64,000 bases of DNA from a candidate division WOR-3 bacterium (lineage in GTDB: Bacteria > Hydrothermota > Tepidihabitantia > Tepidihabitantales > Tepidihabitantaceae): the NCBI GenBank assembly GCA_039801225.1, contig JBDRUH010000001.1, forward strand, positions 1,767 to 65,766. Direction: 5' to 3'. Each line of letters starts with the position of its first letter. Position 1 is the first letter of the stretch. Positions 9,872-63,502 of this stretch are shown in pieces. The notes beneath the pieces are model-generated. The model was not told the origin of the DNA, did no database searches, and saw only the letters and a program-made list of their open reading frames with translations. A program made the position numbers and the translations under genes.

Positions 9872-12022
9872 TCACTCCAAAAGGAGCAGTTTATGCACCC
9901 CGTTAACCCCTTTTCCCAATAACCGGATGAAATATAATCCTGCTGGCACTCGCCTTCCCGAATTGTCAGTAAAGTCCCAAACCAAACCAGACCCGGATGG
10001 CTTTAATGCCCGCACCTTTTCCCCGGTAATATCATAAATCTCCAAGACAACCAGCGGAGAAAGACTGAGGACAACCGGTGCCGAACCTATCCTCCAAACT
10101 GTCGGCTGTCGGCTGGCGGCTGGCGGCCATCGGCCGTCATCTGACGGGTTCTCCTCCACCCCTGGGTTGAACCTGATCCAGAATGACCAGGATGTGCTAA
10201 AATCGCCCCAGCCAAAACGATTATAGCCTTTGCAAAACCATTTGTAAGACTTACCATAGGTAAAAAGGTTGTCGGGAAGAGAACAACAAGGGACAGTTGT
10301 TACCGCCCGCCAGATGGTGTCGCCCGCACCATAAACAACCCGGAAACAGAAACTGTCCAAATCATTACGGGTGGTATCAACTAATAGGACAACCGGCGGC
10401 GAGAAAAGCTGCTGACCGTTTGGCGGTGCGAGATGTTTCGGTGGCAGCGCACCACGAATCAACTTAAAACAGCCAAAAGTCCCATCTGCCGACATCAGGG
10501 TTCCATTCCGATACTGTCGCAAGCGAAGGCGGAAGGAGTCGCCAGAAGGAAGTTCTGGGCTGACGAACCAGTTATAAACACCGGTATCAGGCACACTATC
10601 AAGAAAATTCCAGGTCCTGCCGGCATTGAAGGAAATATCTATTGCTACCCAGTCTGCCGGATTGCCAAAGTTGTCCCATCGCACCAAAACGGTATCTCCA
10701 ATAAATAGTGTCTCGCCCTTGCCCAGTGAGTTGTAAAAGGTGTCTCCGAGTGGGTAAAGAAGTTCCAGTTTATATGCATCCGCACCATTGGGATGGGGCG
10801 ACCCGATATGGGAGTTGTCTTCACCGGAATAGTGCCACCACTCCGCCGGTTTCCACCAGGTGTTGTGGACATACAGGTCCTTTTCCGGTGTGCGATAGCC
10901 ATAAGCGGCTAAAGAGTGAATCGCCCAGGTTGCTGACCAGACAAAGGCATAACCATCGTCAATTTCATTAACAATCCTCTCCCAGGCCCAGTCGTTTGCC
11001 GGCGTGCCTAGGTCCTGAATAACCTCAAAGGAGTAGCCATTGTCATAGGCAACCAGCCAGAGCCCTGGGGCGACCGCCGGGATACTCGTTGCCCCTCGGG
11101 TTGTGTCGGTGCTCATCCTTATGGCGCACTCCCGCTGGACATTGGGAATCTGCTTGTCCCATTCACCTTCCACCATATCCCAGCGCATCCAGAACCAGTC
11201 AACCAACCGACCATAATTCTGGCTCTTATCAATATATCCCATAACCATTGCTGCCGCAGTGGGTGTGCAGCCATAACTCCAGTCGTAAAATGGCGCCTTG
11301 TCCGCATCGGGGACAAATACGGCGGTAAACTTACTAAAGTCCCGATTCAATGCCTCTGCCCACTCCTGTTGGTGAATCTCCGCCGCAAGTCTCTTTTCCT
11401 CATTGTCCAGGTTTGCCTTTTTCTTTAAATCGGCGATGTGGTTAACAAATTCTTCCCGGGAACAAAAGGTCTGTTCAAAATGAGGGGTGAATATTACCCG
11501 CTCTTTAGAGGAATTGGCAAACTCAAGAAAGGTGACCGGCATAATAAAATAAATCCGGCAGAGGTAAACATCTTCACCAAGAACAGCCTTCGCCCGTTTC
11601 AGACCTTCGGGGACCACCGCGTAGAACTCGGAAGTACCATAGCCATAACAGACAATTGGCGGTCGGTCGTAACGGGCAGAAATTAGTAGATGGCTGTATT
11701 TTGAACGCCATTTGGTCAAATCGGTATTGGCGGTCAGGTTTTCCTTTTCGGCAATAATGTCTTTAACCACTTCATCATAATCGGGAAATTCCTTGCCATC
11801 GGTGCGAAAGTGAAACATATAACCGGCGGTCTGACCTTCCTCGTCCACATAAGGAATAATTGTTCCGAGTCGGCATCCCGGCCATTCCGCCTGTGCCTTA
11901 CGCAGAGCAATCTCTTTAATAGTCTCAAATGGCACCGCATTGGGTGGTGTTGAGCCCACTTCCGGCAGAGAAATTGCCCAGAGTGCGCCTAAACTAAAAA
12001 CCAATATTAAAAACAGCCTCAT
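9872..12022 (-). CDS. T9SS-secreted protein with a C39-like/papain-like cysteine peptidase-like domain
   Basis: N-terminal signal peptide. The C-terminus (YDITGEKVRALKPSG...GLYFIRLLGKGVNGVHKLLLLE) matches the type-A T9SS C-terminal sorting domain. Internal Cys motif DWSYGCTPTAAAMVMGY resembles the catalytic Cys motif of C39-type peptidases. The domain call is tentative. Confidence 0.65.
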   Translation of the reverse strand: MRLFLILVFSLGALWAISLPEVGSTPPNAVPFETIKEIALRKAQAEWPGCRLGTIIPYVDEEGQTAGYMFHFRTDGKEFPDYDEVVKDIIAEKENLTANTDLTKWRSKYSHLLISARYDRPPIVCYGYGTSEFYAVVPEGLKRAKAVLGEDVYLCRIYFIMPVTFLEFANSSKERVIFTPHFEQTFCSREEFVNHIADLKKKANLDNEEKRLAAEIHQQEWAEALNRDFSKFTAVFVPDADKAPFYDWSYGCTPTAAAMVMGYIDKSQNYGRLVDWFWMRWDMVEGEWDKQIPNVQRECAIRMSTDTTRGATSIPAVAPGLWLVAYDNGYSFEVIQDLGTPANDWAWERIVNEIDDGYAFVWSATWAIHSLAAYGYRTPEKDLYVHNTWWKPAEWWHYSGEDNSHIGSPHPNGADAYKLELLYPLGDTFYNSLGKGETLFIGDTVLVRWDNFGNPADWVAIDISFNAGRTWNFLDSVPDTGVYNWFVSPELPSGDSFRLRLRQYRNGTLMSADGTFGCFKLIRGALPPKHLAPPNGQQLFSPPVVLLVDTTRNDLDSFCFRVVYGAGDTIWRAVTTVPCCSLPDNLFTYGKSYKWFCKGYNRFGWGDFSTSWSFWIRFNPGVEENPSDDGRWPPAASRQPTVWRIGSAPVVLSLSPLVVLEIYDITGEKVRALKPSGSGLVWDFTDNSGRRVPAGLYFIRLLGKGVNGVHKLLLLE

Positions 12023-12150: not shown

Positions 12151-13545
12151 TCAAACAAAAGCGCTTATCAGCGCTTCGGCTACAATGGGAATTTCATCCG
12201 AGCGGATGGTGCGAAAGTCTAAGAGATATTCCCCCTTTTCTATTCGCCCGAAGACCGGCGGACGGTAAAACCGCATCCGCTGTGCCAGTTCCTCCACCTT
12301 AATTTTTTTCGGTTTTATCGCCAAAACCCTTGACTCCAGACTCTCGGTCGCCAGCGAGCCACCCCCAACCTCGGCTTTTGCCGGCTTGATTTCCAAATCC
12401 GCCTGGTCGCCAATTTTGTCTTTTACCAAAATCAAAAGTTCATTAGCCCCTTTTTCCATTTCCGGCAGTGGCTTTAAGAGAATCTGTATCAAGGGATGCT
12501 CTTTTATCACCCGCTCCTCATCCAAAAAAAGTTCCAGTGTTCGCTCTAAAACTGCATAGGTAAGTTTACCACAGCGCAATGCCCGGGTTAATGGATTTTT
12601 CTTCATCCGGTCAATCAGGTCTCTACGGCCGACAATTATTCCCGCCTGACTGCCTCCGATCAGTTTGTCCCCGGAAAAACAGACGATATCGGCACCGGTA
12701 GCAATTGATTCAGCCACCACCGGCTCCTTCGGCAGTCCATATTTGGAAAGGTCAATCAGTGCTCCAGACCCGAGGTCATCAATCACCACAATGTTGTGTC
12801 GTCTACCAAGTTGAACCAGTTCCTCAAGTGGCACCTCCTTGGTAAACCCGATAATCCGATAATTGGAGGTGTGAACCCGGAGGAGCACCGCAGTATCCGG
12901 CGAGATGGCATCTTCGTAGTCCCGAAGGTGGGTGCGATTGGTCGTGCCCACTTCGACCATACGGCAACCGCTCTGTTGCATAACTTCAGGAATCCGGAAT
13001 GAACCACCAATTTCAATCAACTGACCCCGGGAGACGATAACCTCTTTCCCCTTAGCAATCGTCGAGAGAATTAAAAGTGTTGCGGCACAGTTATTGTTCA
13101 CCACCATTGCCGCTTCGGCACCGGTCAACTCGCACAAAAGCGATTCAATATGGCGATACCTGCTCCCCCGCCGTCCATCCGTCCGATTAATCTCTAAACA
13201 GCAAAAGTTCTCACTTACCTCTACAAGCGCCTTTTGGGCTAACTTAGCAAGAGGTGCCCTTCCTAATCCAGTGTGTAAAACTACACCCAAACCATTGATC
13301 GCCCGACAGAGGCTGGGTTTGAGGTTCTCTTGAAGCCTCATTTCCAATTCGTCAAGGTTGAACTCATCATCCTTCCCCTGTAGAAGTTTCTGCCGAATAT
13401 CCTCCAGATACTCCCGGATAACCCATTTGGCGAGCCGGGGATGCAGTTGACTCAAAATCGGTCGCAGGCGTTCGTCAGAAAGGAGTTTTTCTACCGCCGG
13501 TAACTGCCGGAGTCTTGCCTGACGGTCTTCTTCTCTTATTACCAT
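12151..13545 (-). CDS. selA: L-seryl-tRNA(Sec) selenium transferase (selenocysteine synthase)
   Basis: HTSNYRIIGFTKEV, CFSGDKLIGGSQAGIIVGRRDLI (PLP-Lys region), VVNNNCAATLLIL and the N-terminal LPAVEKLL are SelA hallmarks. Length 464 aa. Confidence 0.85.
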   Translation of the reverse strand: MVIREEDRQARLRQLPAVEKLLSDERLRPILSQLHPRLAKWVIREYLEDIRQKLLQGKDDEFNLDELEMRLQENLKPSLCRAINGLGVVLHTGLGRAPLAKLAQKALVEVSENFCCLEINRTDGRRGSRYRHIESLLCELTGAEAAMVVNNNCAATLLILSTIAKGKEVIVSRGQLIEIGGSFRIPEVMQQSGCRMVEVGTTNRTHLRDYEDAISPDTAVLLRVHTSNYRIIGFTKEVPLEELVQLGRRHNIVVIDDLGSGALIDLSKYGLPKEPVVAESIATGADIVCFSGDKLIGGSQAGIIVGRRDLIDRMKKNPLTRALRCGKLTYAVLERTLELFLDEERVIKEHPLIQILLKPLPEMEKGANELLILVKDKIGDQADLEIKPAKAEVGGGSLATESLESRVLAIKPKKIKVEELAQRMRFYRPPVFGRIEKGEYLLDFRTIRSDEIPIVAEALISAFV

Positions 13546-30063: not shown

Positions 30064-31062
30064 ATGCTTTATCGTGAGGCCGGTGTTGATATTGACCGGA
30101 TGAGTGCGGTGAAAAAGGAGATTGCTCAACTGGTGAAAACGACCTTTTCCCCTGAGGTCCTCTCCGAAATCGGGCTCTTTGGCGCGCTATTCCGCTGTCC
30201 AATGGGGAAAAATCCCGTTTTAGTAGCAAGTTGTGACAGCGTTGGAACTAAGGTCTTTATAGCTAAAAATCTGGGTGTCTACCACACGGTAGGCATTGAT
30301 ATTGTCAATCACTGTGTAAATGACATCTTAACCTTGGGGGCAAAACCACTTTTCTTCCTTGACTACATCGCCCATTCTGATCTCAAGAACAGTCAATTGG
30401 TTGATATCGTCAAAGGTCTTTCCCGTGCTTGCCGGATGAACAACTGCTCTCTGGTTGGCGGTGAAACGGCAATGATGCCCGATTTGTATCGCCCGGGTGA
30501 TTTTGATTTGGTCGGTTTTATCGTCGGGGTAGTAGAGAAAAAGAAAATTGTCAACCCTGAGAGTCTTGAGCCGCAAGATCTGGCTATCGGCATCCCCTCT
30601 AGCGGTCTGCACACCAACGGTTATTCCCTTGCCCGAAAAGTTTTATTTTCTAAAAACCGATTCACTGTCTCTTCCCGATTGAAAGGCTTAAGGCGTCCGT
30701 TGGGAAAAGAGTTGCTGGTGCCCCATCGCTCTTATCTTTGGCTCGTTTACCCTCACCTTGAGCATATTAAAGCAATCGCCCACATCACTGGCGGTGGGTT
30801 TTATGAGAATATCAAACGGTTACTGCCGCCAGAGAGGGCATGTATTATCAAAAAGTCATCCTGGCGCCCCAAGCCAATCTTCCGACTGATTCAGCGCTTG
30901 GGTAATATTCCAGACACGGAGATGTATCGGACATTCAACATGGGGATGGGAATGGTGCTATTTATCTCACCGGAACGGAAAGAAAAGGTTCTAAGGGCCA
31001 TCCCCGGGGCGAAGGTGATTGGGAAAATTGTCCGTGGTACATTTGGCGTGGTGGTTATATAA
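30064..31062 (+). CDS. purM: Phosphoribosylformylglycinamidine cyclo-ligase (AIR synthetase)
   Basis: YREAGVDID, CDSVGTK, HCVNDILTLGAKPLFFLDY. Confidence 0.9.
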   Translation: MLYREAGVDIDRMSAVKKEIAQLVKTTFSPEVLSEIGLFGALFRCPMGKNPVLVASCDSVGTKVFIAKNLGVYHTVGIDIVNHCVNDILTLGAKPLFFLDYIAHSDLKNSQLVDIVKGLSRACRMNNCSLVGGETAMMPDLYRPGDFDLVGFIVGVVEKKKIVNPESLEPQDLAIGIPSSGLHTNGYSLARKVLFSKNRFTVSSRLKGLRRPLGKELLVPHRSYLWLVYPHLEHIKAIAHITGGGFYENIKRLLPPERACIIKKSSWRPKPIFRLIQRLGNIPDTEMYRTFNMGMGMVLFISPERKEKVLRAIPGAKVIGKIVRGTFGVVVI

Positions 31063-33596: not shown

Positions 33597-34280
33597 TTAC
33601 AGTCGGTATGAGACCTTCACGCCTGGCTGATTTTCTGCCGGTTTAAATTCAAGCCGACTACTCAACTTAGCCTCGGGCAGGAAAAACAGACAATCTAAAA
33701 AACTTACCAGCCGGTTCAAGACCAGTGCGGCAGCAAGAAAACTGGCGTTCATCCCGGCAGTCCGTGCGGCTCTTCTCGTGCGCCAGTAGGAATAAATGCG
33801 GATTGAGTCTGAACTCCAGTCCCACTGGGCGCTACCAAAATACCCCCGCGCCTGGTAATATCGGCGCTGGGCATCCGGGTCATTAGGATACAGTTCTCTT
33901 GCCTCCCTTCGGATATCTTCATTGAACTGTTCGGCATTATCGTAAACCTCCAGCGCCCGGTAATAACGGCGGTCGGTTATGGTAATGTCCGCACTGGCAT
34001 ATCTTTTGGCGATAAGCCGGGCGTCTTGCTCCCGGCTCTTCTGTAACCAAGCAAACCCTGCCCAACCCGAAAAGAAAATGCCATCCATCCATAGCATCAC
34101 CTCTCCCCGTTTTTTCACCCCGCTAAGCAACTGCCCACTACCAGGTAGAACTATAGAACTCAGCATCACAACACCTCGCCCCAGTTTCTTGGTTTTGAGT
34201 TCCTGGTTTTGAGTTTTAGAAAATATGAATTCTGAAATAGGGGAATTGCTGACTAATAAGACCGCCAGAACCAAACTCAT
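33597..34280 (-). CDS. Hypothetical membrane protein (DUF5683-like)
   Basis: SIVLPGSGQLLSGVKKRGEVMLWMDGIFFSGWAGFAW resembles the DUF5683 motif. Weak. Confidence 0.4.
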   Translation of the reverse strand: MSLVLAVLLVSNSPISEFIFSKTQNQELKTKKLGRGVVMLSSIVLPGSGQLLSGVKKRGEVMLWMDGIFFSGWAGFAWLQKSREQDARLIAKRYASADITITDRRYYRALEVYDNAEQFNEDIRREARELYPNDPDAQRRYYQARGYFGSAQWDWSSDSIRIYSYWRTRRAARTAGMNASFLAAALVLNRLVSFLDCLFFLPEAKLSSRLEFKPAENQPGVKVSYRL

Positions 34281-34335: not shown

Positions 34336-37203
34336 TCATTCAATAATCAATTTCTTTCCGGTTATCATGCTTTTATAGCGGACAGTTAAAAAATAGACTC
34401 CAGGAATGAGCCCATCCAGGGCAACCTCCTCTTCAGCTACTCTTAGTTGATATCTCTTTACCTCTCGCCCCGATACATCATAAATACCGATATAAGCACC
34501 GGCTTGGGCAGCAACCTTGATACTTCCCTTTCGCGAGAGAATTGTGGCGCACATTTGGCTTTTGGCTTTTGGCTTTTGGCTTTTAACTTCCTCCACTCCA
34601 ATCAGATTCCAGTCGGTAAGTTTGGCATAAATGTCCCATCCCCGGTGCCGACGGTTGTCAGTCCAGGTAAAAGCAATTCTTTCCCTGTTAGCAGCAACGC
34701 TCTGACCAACAGTCCAGTGGACATTTTTCGGGAATATATTGGGTTCATTAATTTTCTTATTGTTGCTGACTCTTGTTCCATCTTCTCGGAACCGCTGGCA
34801 GTAAATCTGCGGATTGCCATAACCTTCCCTTTCATCGTTAAACATAACCACCAGCCTGCCCGAAGGGTCAAAGGAACAGGTTGGTGAGTAGGCGTCGTAA
34901 TCAAACCCTAAGGGTTCGTTAATCCGTTCATTCTCGCCCAGTGGCTTACCGATTGAGTCCAACCACTGCAGATAAACATTATAGGTCTCGTTTCTGGTAT
35001 CCTCCCAAGCGATCGCTATCCTCCTCTCATCCGATATGGCACAGGCTGGATAACCCTGATAAACGGCACTAGCGTCAGTATTCACCCGAATATTCCCGCC
35101 TATTCTTGAACCATCAGGACGGAATAACTGACAGTAAATATTATAATCACCATCCCGTAAGTCCATCCAACTTACAACCCATTCTCCAGAAGAGTTCATC
35201 GCTACGCTGGCATAACAACCTTCTGCGGCAGGGTCACTAACTAAAAACTCTGGACCCTGGGGATTGCCACTTTCGTCATAAAGCCGGGCAAATATCTGCG
35301 CCTTCCCTTCTCGATAATCAGTCCAGACAACCACCGCCCGATTGAAAGAATCAAGGGCACAATAGGAATACCACTGAAAGCCACCACTCGCATCAGAATT
35401 CACCCGAAAGTTGCCACCGCTCGGCTCACCTTCTCTATCAAAAAACTGACCGTATATATCCGCTTCATCACCTCTGATCTCGGTCCAGGTAACAAGAAAC
35501 CGTCCTTTGCCACCAGCAACACTGGGGTAATAATGGAGCGCACCAGGCAGTTCCTCATTTACTTTAATATTATCGCCTACCTCTTTTCCTAAAGAGTCAA
35601 ACACCGCGAAGTAGATGTCCGATTCACCATTTCGCTCATCATCCCAGGCGATGCCAATATTGCCCTGGCGTTCCATTCCGATTGATGATGTCCGCTGATG
35701 AGCACTAGCGCTATCATCATTCACCTTGAAATTACTGCCAATCGGTGTCCCATCCCGAGCGAGCCTTTGACAGTAGATATCCAAATTCCCTGCCCGGGCG
35801 TCAGCCCAGGCAACCCAGTAACCACCATCCAAAGTGGCTGCCACACTTGGTGAATTTTGGCTGGCTCCCCCGATGTCGGTATTTATTTTAAACTCATCTC
35901 CTATCCGATTGCCCTGGATATCAAACCGCTGGGCATAAATGTCCTCCTGTCCATCCCGACAATCGGTCCAGACAATTATAAACTCACCCAATTGATTTAT
36001 CGCCACATCACTGCCGAACTGGTCGGCATCGCCGTTATCGTTATTAACCCGGAAGTTGTCGCCTATCGGCTCGCCCGAACTTGAATAAATCTGGGCATAA
36101 ATATCCCCCTGACCGCGGCGATGGTCATCCCAGGAGATGACAAACTCACCGCTCGGAGAAACACCGATTGACGGTGACCACTGAGTGCTGTCATCGGTTG
36201 TAACCTGAATGTTATTACCCAACCTGGTGCCATCAAACCGAAATCGTTGAAAGAATATGTTCCAGTCCCAGGCGTTGTTTCCCCTTCCATCCATCCATAC
36301 AACCACAAACCTGCCCGAGTCATCACTTCCTACCGAAGGTTCATACTGATTGGCATAACCAATCGGGTCATCATTTACCCGAAAATTACCGCCTTGGGGT
36401 GAGCCATCGGGGTTGAAAAATTGAGCATAGATATCGCCAGTAAGCCCAAATCTTCGGTCATCCCAGGCAACAAGTGCCGTGCCATCCGCTCCTATGGAAA
36501 CACTGGAAATACTCTGGTCTCCTGCTACCCCAGAATCACTCACCCGGAAATTATCACCAATTCTTGTTCCGTCAGCATCAAACCATTGAGCGAACACATC
36601 CGAGTTGCCAATCTCTCGCCGGTCCTCCCAGGTGAAGAGAAACTTACCATCCAAACCGATAGCACCTGCCGGGTCGCCCTGCCAGCCCATCGTTATATCG
36701 GTATTAACCCGCTCATTTGTTCCGATAGGATGACCGCTGGAGTCAAACCGCTGAAACCATATATCAGCATCACCATCCCGAAACTCATACCAGGCGATGA
36801 CAAATGAACCATCCGAACCTATAGCAATTGCCGGACCGGATTGAGGACAACCACCGGTTATATCATCATTACATAGAAAGTCACCCCGGATGACACTATC
36901 TCTGTCACCCTTATAGGACAAGGCTTTAGCCAACAAAAATGTAGGGCAAGGCTTTAGCCTTGCTTTTCCGAATGCAAACCTAAAGGTAGTCGCACAGCGA
37001 CCTGCGTGCTCCACACAAGGGAGCCCAAAGACAGATGACCGAAGACCGTCTCCGGTCTCCCGTCTCCTGTCTTCTGTTGAGCGGGGTTTGGGGCACGCAG
37101 AGTGCCCTACATTACTCGTGGGGATATTAGCCAAGTTGTAGGACAACGCTTTAGCCCTACCTTCTCCCAAAATCATAAATCCCAATATGAGAATTAAATT
37201 CAT
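34336..37203 (-). CDS. T9SS-secreted protein with ~14 tandem ~48-aa repeats (W.D.R.G..DIY.QRFD..G...G.NFRVN.D motif), family unknown
   Basis: N-terminal signal peptide MNLILILGFMILG. C-terminal type-A sorting domain (IGIYDVSGREVKRY...IPGVYFLTVRYKS...KKLIIE). Repeat periodicity read directly from the translation. The N-terminal ~90 aa and a C-terminal KSQKPKAKSQ linker are encoded by repeat-family DNA. Confidence 0.7.
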   Translation of the reverse strand: MNLILILGFMILGEGRAKALSYNLANIPTSNVGHSACPKPRSTEDRRRETGDGLRSSVFGLPCVEHAGRCATTFRFAFGKARLKPCPTFLLAKALSYKGDRDSVIRGDFLCNDDITGGCPQSGPAIAIGSDGSFVIAWYEFRDGDADIWFQRFDSSGHPIGTNERVNTDITMGWQGDPAGAIGLDGKFLFTWEDRREIGNSDVFAQWFDADGTRIGDNFRVSDSGVAGDQSISSVSIGADGTALVAWDDRRFGLTGDIYAQFFNPDGSPQGGNFRVNDDPIGYANQYEPSVGSDDSGRFVVVWMDGRGNNAWDWNIFFQRFRFDGTRLGNNIQVTTDDSTQWSPSIGVSPSGEFVISWDDHRRGQGDIYAQIYSSSGEPIGDNFRVNNDNGDADQFGSDVAINQLGEFIIVWTDCRDGQEDIYAQRFDIQGNRIGDEFKINTDIGGASQNSPSVAATLDGGYWVAWADARAGNLDIYCQRLARDGTPIGSNFKVNDDSASAHQRTSSIGMERQGNIGIAWDDERNGESDIYFAVFDSLGKEVGDNIKVNEELPGALHYYPSVAGGKGRFLVTWTEIRGDEADIYGQFFDREGEPSGGNFRVNSDASGGFQWYSYCALDSFNRAVVVWTDYREGKAQIFARLYDESGNPQGPEFLVSDPAAEGCYASVAMNSSGEWVVSWMDLRDGDYNIYCQLFRPDGSRIGGNIRVNTDASAVYQGYPACAISDERRIAIAWEDTRNETYNVYLQWLDSIGKPLGENERINEPLGFDYDAYSPTCSFDPSGRLVVMFNDEREGYGNPQIYCQRFREDGTRVSNNKKINEPNIFPKNVHWTVGQSVAANRERIAFTWTDNRRHRGWDIYAKLTDWNLIGVEEVKSQKPKAKSQMCATILSRKGSIKVAAQAGAYIGIYDVSGREVKRYQLRVAEEEVALDGLIPGVYFLTVRYKSMITGKKLIIE
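36938..37112. repeat. MITE-like composite repeat with inverted termini atgtagggca ... tgccctacat, carrying a nested copy of a second repeat (gatgaccgaagaccgtct...)
   Basis: 10-nt perfect terminal inverted repeat. Internal 32-nt core identical to 29344-29375. An 18-nt segment identical to 23916-23933. Flanked by three ggctttagcc motifs. Lies inside the 5' coding region of the gene above. Confidence 0.55.
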
Positions 37204-40200
37204 CGGACAATTGCCAGTTTAGCAAACCTTATTTCTTTTTTTGTTCCATTCTCTACCCGCAGCCTAATAATATAAACTCCCGGAGGTATTTTCTTTAAGT
37301 CCAAAGAGGTTTCATTATCGGCTAATGAAACCGCCTGCCCTTGAAACTCTTTTACAAGCGGTTTGCCGCTCATATCCAAGAGCATAAGCCACACCTTGTT
37401 GTTGCCCTCACCGAGATAATATCGGACATTAACATTGTCTCCTGCTGGATTGGGATAGAGATAAAATGAGTCTATCAGTTTGGGAGAAGAGGAAACCATA
37501 GGCGGGATATAAGGAAGTAAACCGGTATGGCAGGGGTCGTGATAGGCACAAGACCAGTCAGGTGAAACGGTTGCCCCGGGCATTTTCCAAACATAGAAAA
37601 CACCTTGGTCCGAACCAACCGCTATCTCCGATATTCCGTCCTGGTCAATGTCTGCGACCAGAGGAGTTGCGCTGACGGAAGCGGTTGCCATCAAAGGAAA
37701 GTAGGACAACATAGTGCCATTAGTTCCGTCAAAACCGAGGACACCATATTGGGGCGAACCGATGACAATATCCCTTACCCCATCGCCATTCAAATCTACC
37801 GGAATTGGTGAAGAACGATACTCAAACGGCACATCATAGGTGATTATCCAGTTACCGGCCAGTTCTTTTTTAACAAAAGTAGACTCGTGGAGAAAAGGGT
37901 AGTTGGTAACCAGAAGCGCGTTGCGATTGAAGGCAAATATTTTATGCCGAGAGGCTAAAAGGATGTCAAGGTAGCCATCATTATTCATATCACTTACCGA
38001 GACGGTCCCTTGAAAAGGATGCTCTATTAGTTCCCGGGATTCAAACACCACCCTTCCATCCTGCTCCACTATATAAAGCCGGTAGTTATGCTCGCCACCG
38101 GCAACCACCGCTATCTCTAAAACACTATCCCGGTCAAAATCACAAACCACCGGCTGCGCCTGAACATAAAATGGCGCATTACCCAAAACAATCGGGAAGT
38201 TATTAATTAGGCTGCCATCGGAATTTAATAGAAACAGCCGACTGTCACCCGAGAGCACCACAATCTTAGGCTGGATGGTATCGGTAACCGCCACCGGTGC
38301 CCTTATTTCCGAACCGATATAAACCGGAAAATTCCCAACCGCCTCCCCGGTTCCTTTCCAGGCATAAAGCCGCATATCGGTTGCACCAACGATAATATCT
38401 TTTAACCCGTCTCCATCAAGGTCACTAAGCACCGGGGGCGCCTTTATTCGGTCAACGGTCTTCATCATCGCCAATAATTGACCGGCACTGCTATAGACCC
38501 GCACACTTCGGTCATCGCCGGCAACGACAACTTCCAGCCCAGGACTAACCGCCACATCACCGATGGCAATGTCAACACCAATTGACGTTCCGGTATTAAT
38601 GAACCCGCCATTAGGATAACGGTAGCCCTGACCAAAAGGAAGCCAGGCGCTTACCTGACCGGCGCTGTCCGCGGTAACAATCTCTATCGTATCATCGCCG
38701 TCCAAGTCGCAAGCAAACGCACTAAGAAACCGCGACCCCCTACCCTGGTCAACCGGGAAACCCGGCTGGTTAAGTTCCCAGTTTACCTTTACCGGTATGA
38801 CCGTATCCTTAAGCCGGTCAAAAGTGTCTTTTACTCCTAATAGCTCTATCGCCAGGAATGTCTTACCACTATAGCCATCACTGTTCGGATTGGTCCGGGC
38901 ATTAAATTTGTCATTATAACCCTGCCGGGAAAAGGCATCAAATTTGTAACCATAAACTTCATATTGATAGTTGTATGTCTGCCAATAGGGAACATCAAAG
39001 TCCTGAATGCCGTCCGCCTCTTCCAGGTCAACCCCCTTGTGTGCCGGGTCAATATTAATCGCATTATAAGGAGCGTAATCGGCAATAACCTTTTCGTCAA
39101 TATGCCATATTAAAATACCGCTCCCGGGTTGAAAAAAGTCATACTCGTTGGACTCAACCCCGATTAACACGCCATCCTCAACATCAACAATTATTGTATC
39201 CGGCTTTCGCACATCGGTCTGCCGGTTTTCAATCAGGAAATACTCATTTTCATTTATGGGCACCTTCACCACTGTCGGATAGGCGCTATCCGGTCTAAGA
39301 CCGAAAGACCCGGTGTCCATCGCTGCGGCATAAATCAATATTGAATCCCTCGGCACCCGCACTTCTACCGGCTGAATAAAACCCAAACTCACCCGGTTAT
39401 AGGCATCAAGGAAACCAGGTATAACCCCTGGTGGCGCACCGGCACCATAATCTCCTAACCAGCCACCATAACCCATCAGACTCCAAGCACCGACACCCAT
39501 TGTTGCACCGGTCACATCGTATAAATCGTATGCACCCAGAAGATGGGCAAACTCATGGGCTAATGTCCCTGCTAAACCAACCATTCCGGCAAGATTGGTC
39601 TCCCCTTTCTCGGTCAAAGTGTCCTGGCGCATCATCTCCGGCAAAACCGTTGCCTGCTCAATTCTCGTCCTACCCTCATCCACCAAAATATAAGGCTCAC
39701 CCAGATAAGCCTCCATCGCACCCGGTGGAATCTCTCCGGCTAAAAGGTCATAAGGACTGTCCCATTTTCCATCAGCCGCATAATCGGACTGGAGACCACT
39801 GCCCGCATGAAAGATGATAAATTCATCATAATCACTAAACCGAATCGCTGTGTCCTCATCAGCCACCTTAAACGCATCCCGCATCAGCCGAACCAGTCCG
39901 AACTCTATCCCCTCATAGGAAACCGTATCGCCATAAAAGCGCATCTCCCGCGGCAACTGATAAGCCTCCTTTTCCCCTTCCGGCATCACCCGGAAGTCAA
40001 CATAAAGTTTACCCAGTGACTGTGCCCGATAGTAGTTTCTTAAACCCTCCATCAGCCTTTCAAAATACCGTTTGAAGTGGGGCGGGTCGTAAAAAAGACC
40101 GGAATCGGGCGAAAGGAAGCCAAAGGTGTCCATCTTACCATTTCCGGTAGTCAGCCTCGTAGTGTCTTCAACAAACTCCACCCGTAAACACAGCACCCTA

Positions 40201-40454
40201 ACGGTATCAACCTCGCCCATTTTTAATCTTTGAATTCGGGCGATGTCCTTCTCGGTTGGATGAAAACGAAATCGGGCAAAGGGCGAAGTTCCTCCTTGTT
40301 GGATGGTAACTGCCGGAATAAGCCTCTTGGTAAAATCTATCTCTTGGCTTTTTTTCTCCATTCGGGATTTGGCAAGGGTGACCCTATGCGCCTCAACCGA
40401 AACGGGCAAAAAAAACAGCCCCAATATTAAAAAAGTTATTGTATTATTCAACAC
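37200..40454 (-). CDS. T9SS-secreted M6-like (immune inhibitor A-type) zinc metallopeptidase with FG-GAP/VCBS repeats
   Basis: HEFAHLLGAYDLYD (HExxH...D resembling M6). FG-GAP-like DLDGDGLKDIIVG, DLNGDGVRDIVIG, DIDQDGISEIAVG. C-terminal sorting domain LYPNPAGDNVNV...GVYIIRLRVENG...LAIVR. The stop overlaps the start of the downstream cargo gene (ATGA). Confidence 0.75.
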   Translation of the reverse strand: MLNNTITFLILGLFFLPVSVEAHRVTLAKSRMEKKSQEIDFTKRLIPAVTIQQGGTSPFARFRFHPTEKDIARIQRLKMGEVDTVRVLCLRVEFVEDTTRLTTGNGKMDTFGFLSPDSGLFYDPPHFKRYFERLMEGLRNYYRAQSLGKLYVDFRVMPEGEKEAYQLPREMRFYGDTVSYEGIEFGLVRLMRDAFKVADEDTAIRFSDYDEFIIFHAGSGLQSDYAADGKWDSPYDLLAGEIPPGAMEAYLGEPYILVDEGRTRIEQATVLPEMMRQDTLTEKGETNLAGMVGLAGTLAHEFAHLLGAYDLYDVTGATMGVGAWSLMGYGGWLGDYGAGAPPGVIPGFLDAYNRVSLGFIQPVEVRVPRDSILIYAAAMDTGSFGLRPDSAYPTVVKVPINENEYFLIENRQTDVRKPDTIIVDVEDGVLIGVESNEYDFFQPGSGILIWHIDEKVIADYAPYNAINIDPAHKGVDLEEADGIQDFDVPYWQTYNYQYEVYGYKFDAFSRQGYNDKFNARTNPNSDGYSGKTFLAIELLGVKDTFDRLKDTVIPVKVNWELNQPGFPVDQGRGSRFLSAFACDLDGDDTIEIVTADSAGQVSAWLPFGQGYRYPNGGFINTGTSIGVDIAIGDVAVSPGLEVVVAGDDRSVRVYSSAGQLLAMMKTVDRIKAPPVLSDLDGDGLKDIIVGATDMRLYAWKGTGEAVGNFPVYIGSEIRAPVAVTDTIQPKIVVLSGDSRLFLLNSDGSLINNFPIVLGNAPFYVQAQPVVCDFDRDSVLEIAVVAGGEHNYRLYIVEQDGRVVFESRELIEHPFQGTVSVSDMNNDGYLDILLASRHKIFAFNRNALLVTNYPFLHESTFVKKELAGNWIITYDVPFEYRSSPIPVDLNGDGVRDIVIGSPQYGVLGFDGTNGTMLSYFPLMATASVSATPLVADIDQDGISEIAVGSDQGVFYVWKMPGATVSPDWSCAYHDPCHTGLLPYIPPMVSSSPKLIDSFYLYPNPAGDNVNVRYYLGEGNNKVWLMLLDMSGKPLVKEFQGQAVSLADNETSLDLKKIPPGVYIIRLRVENGTKKEIRFAKLAIVR

Positions 40455-62092: not shown

Positions 62093-63502
62093 TCAGCGCA
62101 GTTGAGCGCGGTATTCGTAGCGGGTGAGGATATTGGGCGAGGCAATCCAGAGATAGCGGTTATCGGCATAAAGGGCGGTAATTTCTTTATTGGGCAGTCC
62201 GTTACTCTGGTCAATGGTTGTCCAGGTGTGGCTTTTTAAATTGTAGGCGATTACTCTCTCCTGCTCACCGATAAAGAGTAGTTCTTCGGTTGCCGCCATT
62301 ACCCGAACCGGTTGGGAAAGGTCAAAGCCGGGAGGAATGAGATGGCTCCAGGTGTTGGTGGAGTCAAGTTGCAGAATCCCGCCCCGAATTCCGAAAAACG
62401 CCATCTTTTTGCTCGGGGTGATGCTGAACACCCCCCAGTCGCTTTTGGCAAATGGGTCGGTTATTCGGGTTAACCCGCTGTCATGTAAGAGAAAGAGTCC
62501 GTAGTCGGTGGCCACGAGCGTTGACTCCCGCACCAAGGCGAGGGCATTCACCCGGGTTTTGAGCCGGCTGATGTTCTGGAGTTTTCCCTCTCCAGTAAGA
62601 AAATAAAGCCCATCTTCGGTGGCTAATAAGAGGGAGTTACTGGCAAGGGGAAGCAGTGCGGTCAACTTCTCCTGGCGGTGGAGGTCAAGAAGGGGAGCGA
62701 TGAACCGCATTCGGGAAGGGGTAAGTTCACCCGGACGGTAAGAAAAGTGGTGCCAGTTGCCCGCCGAGTCAATGAGAGCCGCCCGGTTTTCTGATAGTAG
62801 CCAAAGACCTTCCTTTCTTTTGAGGACCTGCTGGATAGTCAGGTTAATCGGACCGAGTCGGAGCTCATTTTCCTTAAACCCGTAACGGAGGTTGTAGATG
62901 ATAATCCCATAATCCTGGGCAACCACGAAGAGGCGATTGTGCCTTTCCTCCACCCAGACCCTGGTGAACGGGTGGGAGATGAGTTGTTCGTCAACGACGA
63001 AATATGGGGTGAGGAATGGGAACATTTTGGGGTGAGTGGTGTCTTTCTCACCGAACCAGGTGACCGGTTCTAATACTTCTGAGACCGGTGTGTACAGGTC
63101 GGCGACTCGCTCCTTGCGAAACAGCCCGGATTCGGTATCAAAAAATGCCCCGCTGGTAGTGATACCGATGGAACGAATTTTCTTAAAAGGTGGACTGAGC
63201 CGTTGGACCCTACCCGTAATAGGAAGGTAGTGGTAAAGGGTAGATTCGGTGGCGATTAGGAGTTCATTATATGCCGGGCTAAAGGCACACAGTTTAATCT
63301 TTTCGGCGATACCATCGGCGGAAGTTAAAGTCCTTAGATGCTGGTAGCGGTGGCTATCAAAGATATAGATGCCATAGGGCACCGCAACATAAATCGCCCG
63401 GTTGCTGGTGGTGACAGAAAAGACTTCCGCCATTGAAGGATAAACAAGCCAGTAACCGGGCTCATAACTTAAAGAAAGGGCAAAAAGGAGAAGGTGAATC
63501 AC
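62093..63502 (-). CDS. Secreted beta-propeller repeat protein (two-component-regulator-propeller-like repeats)
   Basis: Signal peptide. Repeated motifs of the type GLPNKEITALYADNRYLWIASPNILTRY resemble Reg_prop repeats. Confidence 0.55.
   Translation of the reverse strand: MIHLLLFALSLSYEPGYWLVYPSMAEVFSVTTSNRAIYVAVPYGIYIFDSHRYQHLRTLTSADGIAEKIKLCAFSPAYNELLIATESTLYHYLPITGRVQRLSPPFKKIRSIGITTSGAFFDTESGLFRKERVADLYTPVSEVLEPVTWFGEKDTTHPKMFPFLTPYFVVDEQLISHPFTRVWVEERHNRLFVVAQDYGIIIYNLRYGFKENELRLGPINLTIQQVLKRKEGLWLLSENRAALIDSAGNWHHFSYRPGELTPSRMRFIAPLLDLHRQEKLTALLPLASNSLLLATEDGLYFLTGEGKLQNISRLKTRVNALALVRESTLVATDYGLFLLHDSGLTRITDPFAKSDWGVFSITPSKKMAFFGIRGGILQLDSTNTWSHLIPPGFDLSQPVRVMAATEELLFIGEQERVIAYNLKSHTWTTIDQSNGLPNKEITALYADNRYLWIASPNILTRYEYRAQLR

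Follow-up and report, generated by a model that had tools for sequence, protein, structure and literature searches.

Two overlapping genes in a core chromosomal region

The stretch of DNA analyzed here (the window; 64,000 nucleotides (nt) of contig JBDRUH010000001.1 from candidate division WOR-3) carries on its minus strand two neighboring genes, referred to as gene 1 and gene 2. Gene 1 encodes a predicted M6-like metalloprotease that carries an FG-GAP β-propeller, and gene 2 a repeat protein predicted to fold into two further propellers; both products end in a type IX secretion system (T9SS) sorting domain. The stop codon of gene 1 and the start codon of gene 2 share 4 nt (ATGA), and both open reading frames (ORFs) were present, as had been proposed in the original prediction of a two-gene operon, which was made from the sequence of the window alone. 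The gene pair is real and tightly linked, and both proteins belong to catalogued, uncharacterized families; it represents a modest lead that would not surprise a specialist. The coordinates of the genes and their features are given in Table 1.

The product of gene 1 is 100% identical to the NCBI protein MEO0070500.1 (P0121; ‘FG-GAP-like repeat-containing protein’), which is annotated one codon shorter. The product of gene 2 is 100% identical to MEO0070499.1 (‘T9SS type A sorting domain-containing protein’), annotated 90 codons shorter, and both NCBI proteins are encoded on a contig of 82,988 nt in a metagenome-assembled genome (MAG) of candidate division WOR-3. The pair is surrounded by genes of the core chromosome, which encode DnaK, IMPDH, MutS2, DnaG, RpoD, LysS, SelA, Rho and NadB-like and XerC-like proteins. 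Four tRNAs were the only Rfam matches in the window, and a scan for promoters and terminators identified sites that were no more common than in shuffled sequence.

Table 1. Genes and predicted features at the locus (aa, amino acids; pLDDT, predicted local distance difference test score)
Feature	Position in the window	Strand	Description or basis
Gene 1	37200..40454	-	1084-aa M6-like metalloprotease with FG-GAP propeller and T9SS C-terminal domain; GTG start
Predicted Sec signal peptide of gene 1, aa 1-22	40389..40454	-	Read by eye: hydrophobic core, then VEA motif (...PVSVEA, followed by H)
M6 (InhA-like) catalytic domain, aa 76-420	39195..40229	-	PF05547 and orthologue profile against 4yu5
Zinc-binding/catalytic motif HEFAHLLGAYD (H300, E301, H304, G307, D310)	39525..39557	-	HExxHxxGxxD conservation
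FG-GAP β-propeller, aa ~560-990, probably eight blades	37485..38777	-	Hidden Markov model (HMM) matches and structural model
Type-A T9SS sorting domain of gene 1, aa 999-1084	37203..37460	-	PF18962, TIGR04183
Gene 2	34336..37203	-	955-aa double β-propeller T9SS cargo protein; ATG start
Probable signal peptide of gene 2, aa 1-19 (MNLILILGFMILGEGRAKA)	37147..37203	-	Read by eye from sequence
Disordered linker with REP-like palindromic elements, aa 20-103	36895..37146	-	pLDDT below 35
N-terminal closing (‘velcro’) strand, aa 104-123 (SVIRGDFLCNDD...)	36835..36894	-	Fourth-strand motif GxNFRVNxD; completes blade 14
Blades 1-7 (first seven-bladed propeller), aa 124-505	35689..36834	-	Repeat anatomy and model
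Blades 8-14 (second seven-bladed propeller), aa 506-872	34588..35688	-	Blade 14 with only three strands of its own
Type-A T9SS sorting domain of gene 2, aa 887-955	34339..34545	-	PF18962, TIGR04183; seven-strand β-sandwich in model
227-aa predicted membrane protein	33597..34280	-	LPGSGQ motif, about three hydrophobic segments; strong AAGGAGG ribosome-binding site ahead

Gene 1 encodes a predicted M6 protease with an FG-GAP propeller

The N-terminal portion of the gene 1 protein was recognized by the Peptidase_M6 model PF05547 over aa 76-358 with 44.3 bits, well above the cut-off of 22; the model TIGR03296 gave 83.7 bits and remained under its cut-off of 110.8. In addition, a profile built from gene 1 orthologues matched InhA (PDB 4yu5) at E 1e-3 within profile aa 28-347 only. 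Gene 1 thus has in common with InhA and peptidase family M6 a catalytic domain above the Pfam threshold, the zinc motif and the profile match. The match is a distant one, however, and the FG-GAP propeller and the sorting domain of gene 1 lie outside the matched features. The protein carries HEFAHLLGAYDLYD at aa 300-313, and the residues H300, E301, H304, G307 and D310 therein were invariant in 41 orthologues. By these features, gene 1 is predicted to encode what is probably an active InhA-like M6 zinc metalloprotease.

The best-scoring family for the gene 1 protein was NF052323, a ‘T9SS-dependent M6-like inactivated metalloprotease’ (374.1 bits, E 1.5e-111, five stretches). With 1043 positions the profile is similar in length to gene 1, and the M6-like domain, the propeller region and the sorting domain are presumably common to both. 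The score stayed, however, under the equivalog cut-off of 600 bits, and the HExxHxxGxxD motif of gene 1 is intact, for which reasons membership in this ‘inactivated M6’ family was rejected. As the catalytic motif is both intact and invariant, the gene 1 protein is apparently an active relative of the NF052323 family.

Four FG-GAP matches above cut-off were found in the gene 1 protein, with 71.9 bits for FG-GAP_3 (PF13517, cut-off 26.9) and 66.9 bits for FG-GAP (PF01839, cut-off 22.1). The original description of an M6-like protease with FG-GAP repeats therefore holds on both counts. The structural model reached a mean pLDDT of 72, with values around 90 for the propeller and the sorting domain and weaker ones for the catalytic domain. 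The best fold match of the propeller was the eight-bladed Cake8 (template modelling score TMt 0.87, root-mean-square deviation (rmsd) 3.0), followed by BamB.

Gene 2 encodes 14 repeats that are predicted to form two propellers

The 955-aa gene 2 protein contains 14 tandem repeats between aa 124 and 872, which is the number that had been estimated before, and the proposed consensus, VxWxDxRxGxxDIYxQRFDxxGxxxGxNFRVNxDxxGxQxxP, was accurate. The repeat length of about 48 aa, on the other hand, had been set too short, as the near-invariant tryptophan of strand 2 recurs at distances of 52-59 aa with a median of 54. A non-circular test of the repeats was carried out with a profile derived exclusively from blades 1-7, which was run on the C-terminal half of the protein with 200 shuffled sequences as control. 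The profile found seven units within aa 506-861 with 297.7 bits, compared to a maximum of 6.6 bits among the shuffled sequences.

The fourth strand is missing from repeat 14, and a fourth-strand motif is present right before repeat 1 (aa 104-118, SVIRGDFLCNDD), in which D108, F109 and N112 were invariant in 90 homologues. An AlphaFold2 model of the protein, calculated with a 90-sequence alignment, reached a mean pLDDT of 85.9 and a predicted template modelling (pTM) score of 0.78, with pLDDT values above 90 across most repeats. The model comprises 14 four-stranded blades, a closing strand predicted at aa 104-110 (pLDDT around 83), and a seven-strand β-sandwich at aa 887-954; aa 1-101 are disordered.

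A Foldseek search of the PDB with this model returned as top matches proteins with tandem seven-bladed propellers, namely a ciliary WD protein, PorZ (5m11), Elp2, EMC1, GH74 and BT4663. PorZ was the second-best match over the full length (E 2e-13, 946 columns). The seven-bladed lectin CV39L superposed on one half of the gene 2 protein (TMt 0.77, rmsd 4.1, 15% identity). Because of this half-superposition, and because the top full-length matches are all double seven-bladed propellers, we read the model as two consecutive seven-bladed propellers, in line with what had been offered as a possibility in the original prediction; a single 14-bladed ring was rejected on the same grounds. The likeness to seven-bladed bacterial lectins (PLL, PHL, CV39L and BP39L) extends to a weak match of one gene 2 relative to the BP39L family, whereas the gene 2 protein itself had no significant sequence match to these lectins.

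In PorZ (5M11), the N-terminal segment provides strand 4 of blade VII in the second propeller, and the two propellers are followed by the C-terminal domain (PMC5121618). PorZ (PG1604) of Porphyromonas gingivalis and the gene 2 protein are accordingly alike in having two consecutive seven-bladed propellers of four-stranded blades, an N-terminal closing strand and a type-A β-sandwich. In contrast, sequence homology between the two was undetectable, and the NCBIfam model for PorZ, NF052228, had no match in gene 2 at E up to 1. The gene 2 blades represent another repeat family, which has a period of 54 aa and many paralogues, and the orientation of the domains differs (TM 0.38-0.45). Judged from the model, gene 2 arrives at a PorZ-like topology with an unrelated repeat, which makes it a neat example of either architectural convergence or very deep divergence.

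Start site and 5’ linker of gene 2

The NCBI annotation starts gene 2 at a TTG 90 codons further in, which yields a protein of 865 aa and removes the hydrophobic N-terminus. Both the closest relative (81% amino-acid identity) and most orthologues have kept the ATG within CCGATGAAT that overlaps the protease stop codon, and the orthologues have similarly short, hydrophobic, signal-like N-termini. For both reasons the 955-aa call is preferable, and the ATGA-overlapped ATG is probably the true start of gene 2. The NCBI start was rejected because it drops the signal peptide, whereas the overlapped ATG and its context are conserved among the orthologues.

No alignment was obtained between the linker that follows the putative signal peptide and that of the closest relative, which it exceeds in length by about 81 nt. 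The entire region ahead of the propellers amounts to 107 aa in gene 2; among 90 homologues, the median is 66 aa. The 20-mer GGCTAAAGCSTTGYCCTAYA occurs in three copies in the linker, where 0.02 would be expected, and the region that harbors these copies (window 36905-37165, minus strand) forms nested inverted repeats with a fold z-score of -6.0. On the plus strand, the sequence at window 36941-36963 is GTAGGGCAAGGCTTTAGCCTTGC, which consists of a GTAG head and a hairpin. The 20-mer was present in at least 120 metagenome contigs, usually as GTAGGGCAAGGCTTTAGCCTTGC and often beside related hairpins with covarying stems. It represents a family of elements with a GTAG head that resemble repetitive extragenic palindromes (REPs). 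We take the GTAG-headed elements to be comparable to REPs that are associated with RAYT proteins. The reading frame of gene 2 is open right across the REP-like element.

In most orthologues, the linker that leads from the signal peptide to the first propeller strand contains an ER(T/S)PxNPRPLP motif (alignment A1). This motif is absent from the gene 2 protein of the window and degenerate in its closest relatives.

Sorting domains and predicted export

Both proteins were proposed to end in type-A sorting domains, and both scored above the Pfam and the TIGR04183 cut-offs. For gene 1, PF18962 reached 39.3 bits and TIGR04183 44.4 bits; for gene 2, the values were 27.4 and 27.9 bits, so that the domain passed the Pfam cut-off of 27 only barely and that of TIGR04183 (23) more clearly. 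A profile of gene 2 homologues, when compared to PDB sequences, matched solved T9SS C-terminal domains (e.g., 8glk_D at E 1e-6); its matches were to sorting domains only and none to the repeats. Among the genes of the 64-kb window, none was found for the T9SS components SprA/Sov, PorV or PorKLMN.

In outline, T9SS type-A cargo of the Bacteroidota is exported by the Sec pathway, translocated under guidance of the sorting domain, and released or anchored at the cell surface. By analogy, we infer that both proteins would be exported through a T9SS and attached to the surface. Searches of the published literature on WOR-3 and T9SS, on the combination of M6, FG-GAP and T9SS, and on TIGR04275 (see below) returned nothing relevant.

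The repeat of gene 2 belongs to a very large family

The original prediction had regarded the gene 2 repeat as novel and not assignable to a family. No model in the 2025 copy of Pfam covers the repeat, and the only Pfam matches of the gene 2 repeats were sub-threshold ones to GH43 (17.5 bits, cut-off 32.2) and ZNRF3; in a homologue, BNR_4 reached 26.6 bits (cut-off 27.3). The NCBIfam models TIGR04275 (‘beta_prop_Msarc’) and NF053835 (‘PDIAV motif-containing lipoprotein’), which are both uncharacterized and have a repeat motif of the same type, also matched the gene 2 protein below their cut-offs, with 60.3 bits in six stretches (cut-off 85) and 30.8 bits (cut-off 90), respectively. Several relatives (P0268, P0271, P0296 and P0277) passed TIGR04275 with 88-126 bits and at the same time matched the window’s own repeat profile at E below 1e-180. 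Since proteins matched by the profile pass the TIGR04275 cut-off, the gene 2 repeat is, judged by profile similarity, a divergent member of a catalogued, uncharacterized superfamily; by the curated TIGR04275 rule, the gene 2 protein is a divergent relative and no member. Thus, the claim of novelty did not stand, and the HMM search that had been recommended produced no match to a well-characterized family. The homologue P0008 has a precomputed Pfam accession, PF28532.1, which may be a recent Pfam entry for part of the repeat family.

An exhaustive HMMER search with a 54-position repeat profile against cluster representatives (clustered at 50% identity) matched 53,711 representatives at E<=1e-3 and 10,537 at E<=1e-30, and most matched proteins have 13-15 repeats. 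In many of the large matched proteins, the number of repeats lies at or near a multiple of seven (21, 28, 42, 56, 63). The giants of the family (P0241-P0384) include P0258, which is the longest with 7,923 aa and 63 repeats, P0243 (7,213 aa, 58 repeats) and P0241 (3,809 aa, 42 repeats).

In its relatives, the module occurs together with T9SS type-A and type-B sorting domains, fn3, Big_5, cohesin, PKD, cadherin, RTX, TIG and FG-GAP. As far as predicted domains can tell, such partners are typical of extracellular binding modules. Genomic relatives of gene 2 were found in WOR-3, Zixibacteria, Calditrichota, Ignavibacteria, Chlorobiaceae, Fermentibacteria, Marinimicrobia, Latescibacterota and Cytophagia, phyla that belong to the FCB (Fibrobacterota-Chlorobiota-Bacteroidota) superphylum. 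The relative P0296 is colinear with aa 103-861 of gene 2 (38% identity, E 7e-138) and continues with a TIG domain, an FG-GAP propeller and a sorting domain, and P0268 has a similar fusion layout. These predicted fusions provide separate evidence that the two propeller types are linked. The FG-GAP region of P0296 was also considered as an orthologue of the gene 1 propeller and rejected, as the similarity was only generic.

The gene pair is conserved across WOR-3 genomes

The neighborhood of the pair was compared among 86 related loci by tblastn. In every locus with a propeller protein at least 39% identical to gene 2 whose contig extends upstream, the M6/FG-GAP gene was located directly upstream. 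This pattern was observed in 40-odd orthologous loci (39-64% identity) from about 40 species-level genomes, including the complete WOR-3 chromosome CP070680.1. In at least 24 of the 42 loci, the two genes overlapped at their junction (-4 or -1), and, counted from the first start codon of whatever type, the gap did not exceed 18 nt in nearly every locus. The search for the same pair in related MAGs, which had been suggested together with the original prediction, therefore revealed a conserved synteny. Below about 38% identity, the loci did not have the protease gene; they represent paralogues, which often occur several times per genome and also in other phyla.

Wherever the contig continues downstream, the propeller gene is followed by a homologue of a 227-aa predicted membrane protein and by nadB. 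The homologue of the 227-aa protein (36-60% identity) was found right after the propeller gene in all orthologous loci that reach far enough. The protein had no match in Pfam or NCBIfam, and it may or may not be part of the system. Just upstream of the deaminase gene, two of the related loci encode a further peptidase with a sorting domain: an M14 carboxypeptidase that carries FlgD_ig and an InhA-like MAM domain in locus L001 (1679-3937), and a short M6 protein of 552 aa in locus L006 (1999-3657). These additional peptidases suggest a local concentration of secreted proteases.

Possible functions of the gene pair

The interpretation that we favor, with slightly better than even confidence, is a vertically inherited and translationally coupled WOR-3 operon for two exported surface proteins that act together on extracellular substrates. 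Both proteins would be exported by Sec and subsequently by the T9SS to the cell surface. There, the InhA-like M6 zinc protease, fused to its propeller of about eight blades, would degrade the substrate. The double propeller of gene 2 would serve as a non-catalytic platform that most likely binds a polymer or the substrate of the protease, or tethers the protease at the surface. Most likely, the pair would thus jointly capture and degrade extracellular substrates; we infer both the partnership, be it physical or functional, and the nature of the gene 2 ligand, and the adhesin suggested in the original prediction is likewise putative. Several observations weigh against this interpretation. The flanking housekeeping genes (deaminase, nadB and xerC) are equally syntenic, so that the adjacency of the pair may partly mirror a general collinearity of this region. 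Propeller paralogues in WOR-3 and other FCB phyla lack an M6 neighbor, the M6 catalytic domain was modelled at moderate confidence only, and, as REP-like insertions are present in the 5’ linker, export of the gene 2 copy in the present genome is not assured.

Some of these observations would also be expected if the two proteins were independent T9SS cargo proteins without a functional partnership, which are adjacent merely through the collinearity of a WOR-3 block. The order of deaminase, M6 protease, propeller protein, 227-aa protein, nadB and xerC is kept as a whole across loci at 40-64% identity, and propeller paralogues are found without M6. Against such a coincidental adjacency, the two genes in most orthologous loci still overlap by 4 nt or 1 nt or are at most 18 nt apart, and the 14-blade module is elsewhere fused to, or adjoins, FG-GAP propellers. 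We consider independent cargo proteins rather unlikely, though less so than a third and improbable explanation, in which the pair would be an analogue of the T9SS attachment complex specific to this lineage, with a PorZ-like double propeller that presents the glycolipid anchor and a protease that processes cargo as PorU does. PorZ is needed to attach T9SS cargo and binds both anionic LPS and PorU. This explanation would be consistent with the rank of PorZ among the full-length structural matches and the rare topology in common, with the position of the pair in a conserved housekeeping block across the WOR-3 orthologues, and with sorting domains on both proteins, which are also present on PorU and PorZ. 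However, the NCBIfam models for PorZ and PorU matched nothing beyond the sorting domain, and the repeat family is very large, with several paralogues per genome and giant multidomain proteins among its members. In addition, PorU is a cysteine protease and not an M6 enzyme. A still slimmer chance is given to the pair being a non-homologous replacement of the PorU/PorZ module of the Bacteroidota, in which the PorZ-shaped double propeller with its unrelated repeat would join the sorting-domain-bearing M6 metalloprotease in processing and anchoring T9SS cargo. If true, surface attachment by the T9SS would have been reinvented outside the Bacteroidota.

The double propeller may also be, instead of a scaffold, an enzyme such as a lyase or a glycosidase that resembles GH74 or GH43. 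GH74 double propellers reached the top query-normalized TM values (0.40-0.42), GH145 and PL42 propellers were among the structural matches, and weak matches to Glyco_hydro_43 and BNR_4 occurred in the gene 2 protein and its relatives. All family matches were, however, below the cut-offs and located inside the generic blade repeat, and the identity to the structural matches was only about 10%. Moreover, the residues conserved in the family are the repeat-consensus positions of every blade and do not converge on one active site, and giant proteins contain as many as 63 copies of the module. An enzymatic role of gene 2 appears very unlikely.

The surface protease and its propeller partner would, under the favored interpretation of joint action on extracellular substrates, provide a concrete and phylum-wide conserved module for WOR-3, a lineage without a cultured representative. 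The family of extracellular double propellers to which gene 2 belongs is very large (about 54,000 clusters), catalogued but functionally blank, and has no solved structure that is detectable by sequence. The structure or the ligand of a single member would extend annotation to tens of thousands of proteins. The pair is a useful lead for annotation, both of a phylum without cultivated members and of a domain family of very large size.

Other genes in the window

Three ORFs of the window, all on the minus strand, had no or only a marginal family assignment (9872-12022, 716 aa; 25188-26633, 481 aa; 62093-63502, 469 aa). The 716-aa ORF matched Peptidase_C39_2 with 24 bits, which is exactly the cut-off. 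An AIRS-family gene is located at window 30064-31062 on the plus strand, with SelD, ThiL or HypE as candidates. The gene for SelA, an L-seryl-tRNA(Sec) selenium transferase, was identified at window 12151-13545 on the minus strand (571 bits), and given its presence the organism probably uses selenocysteine.

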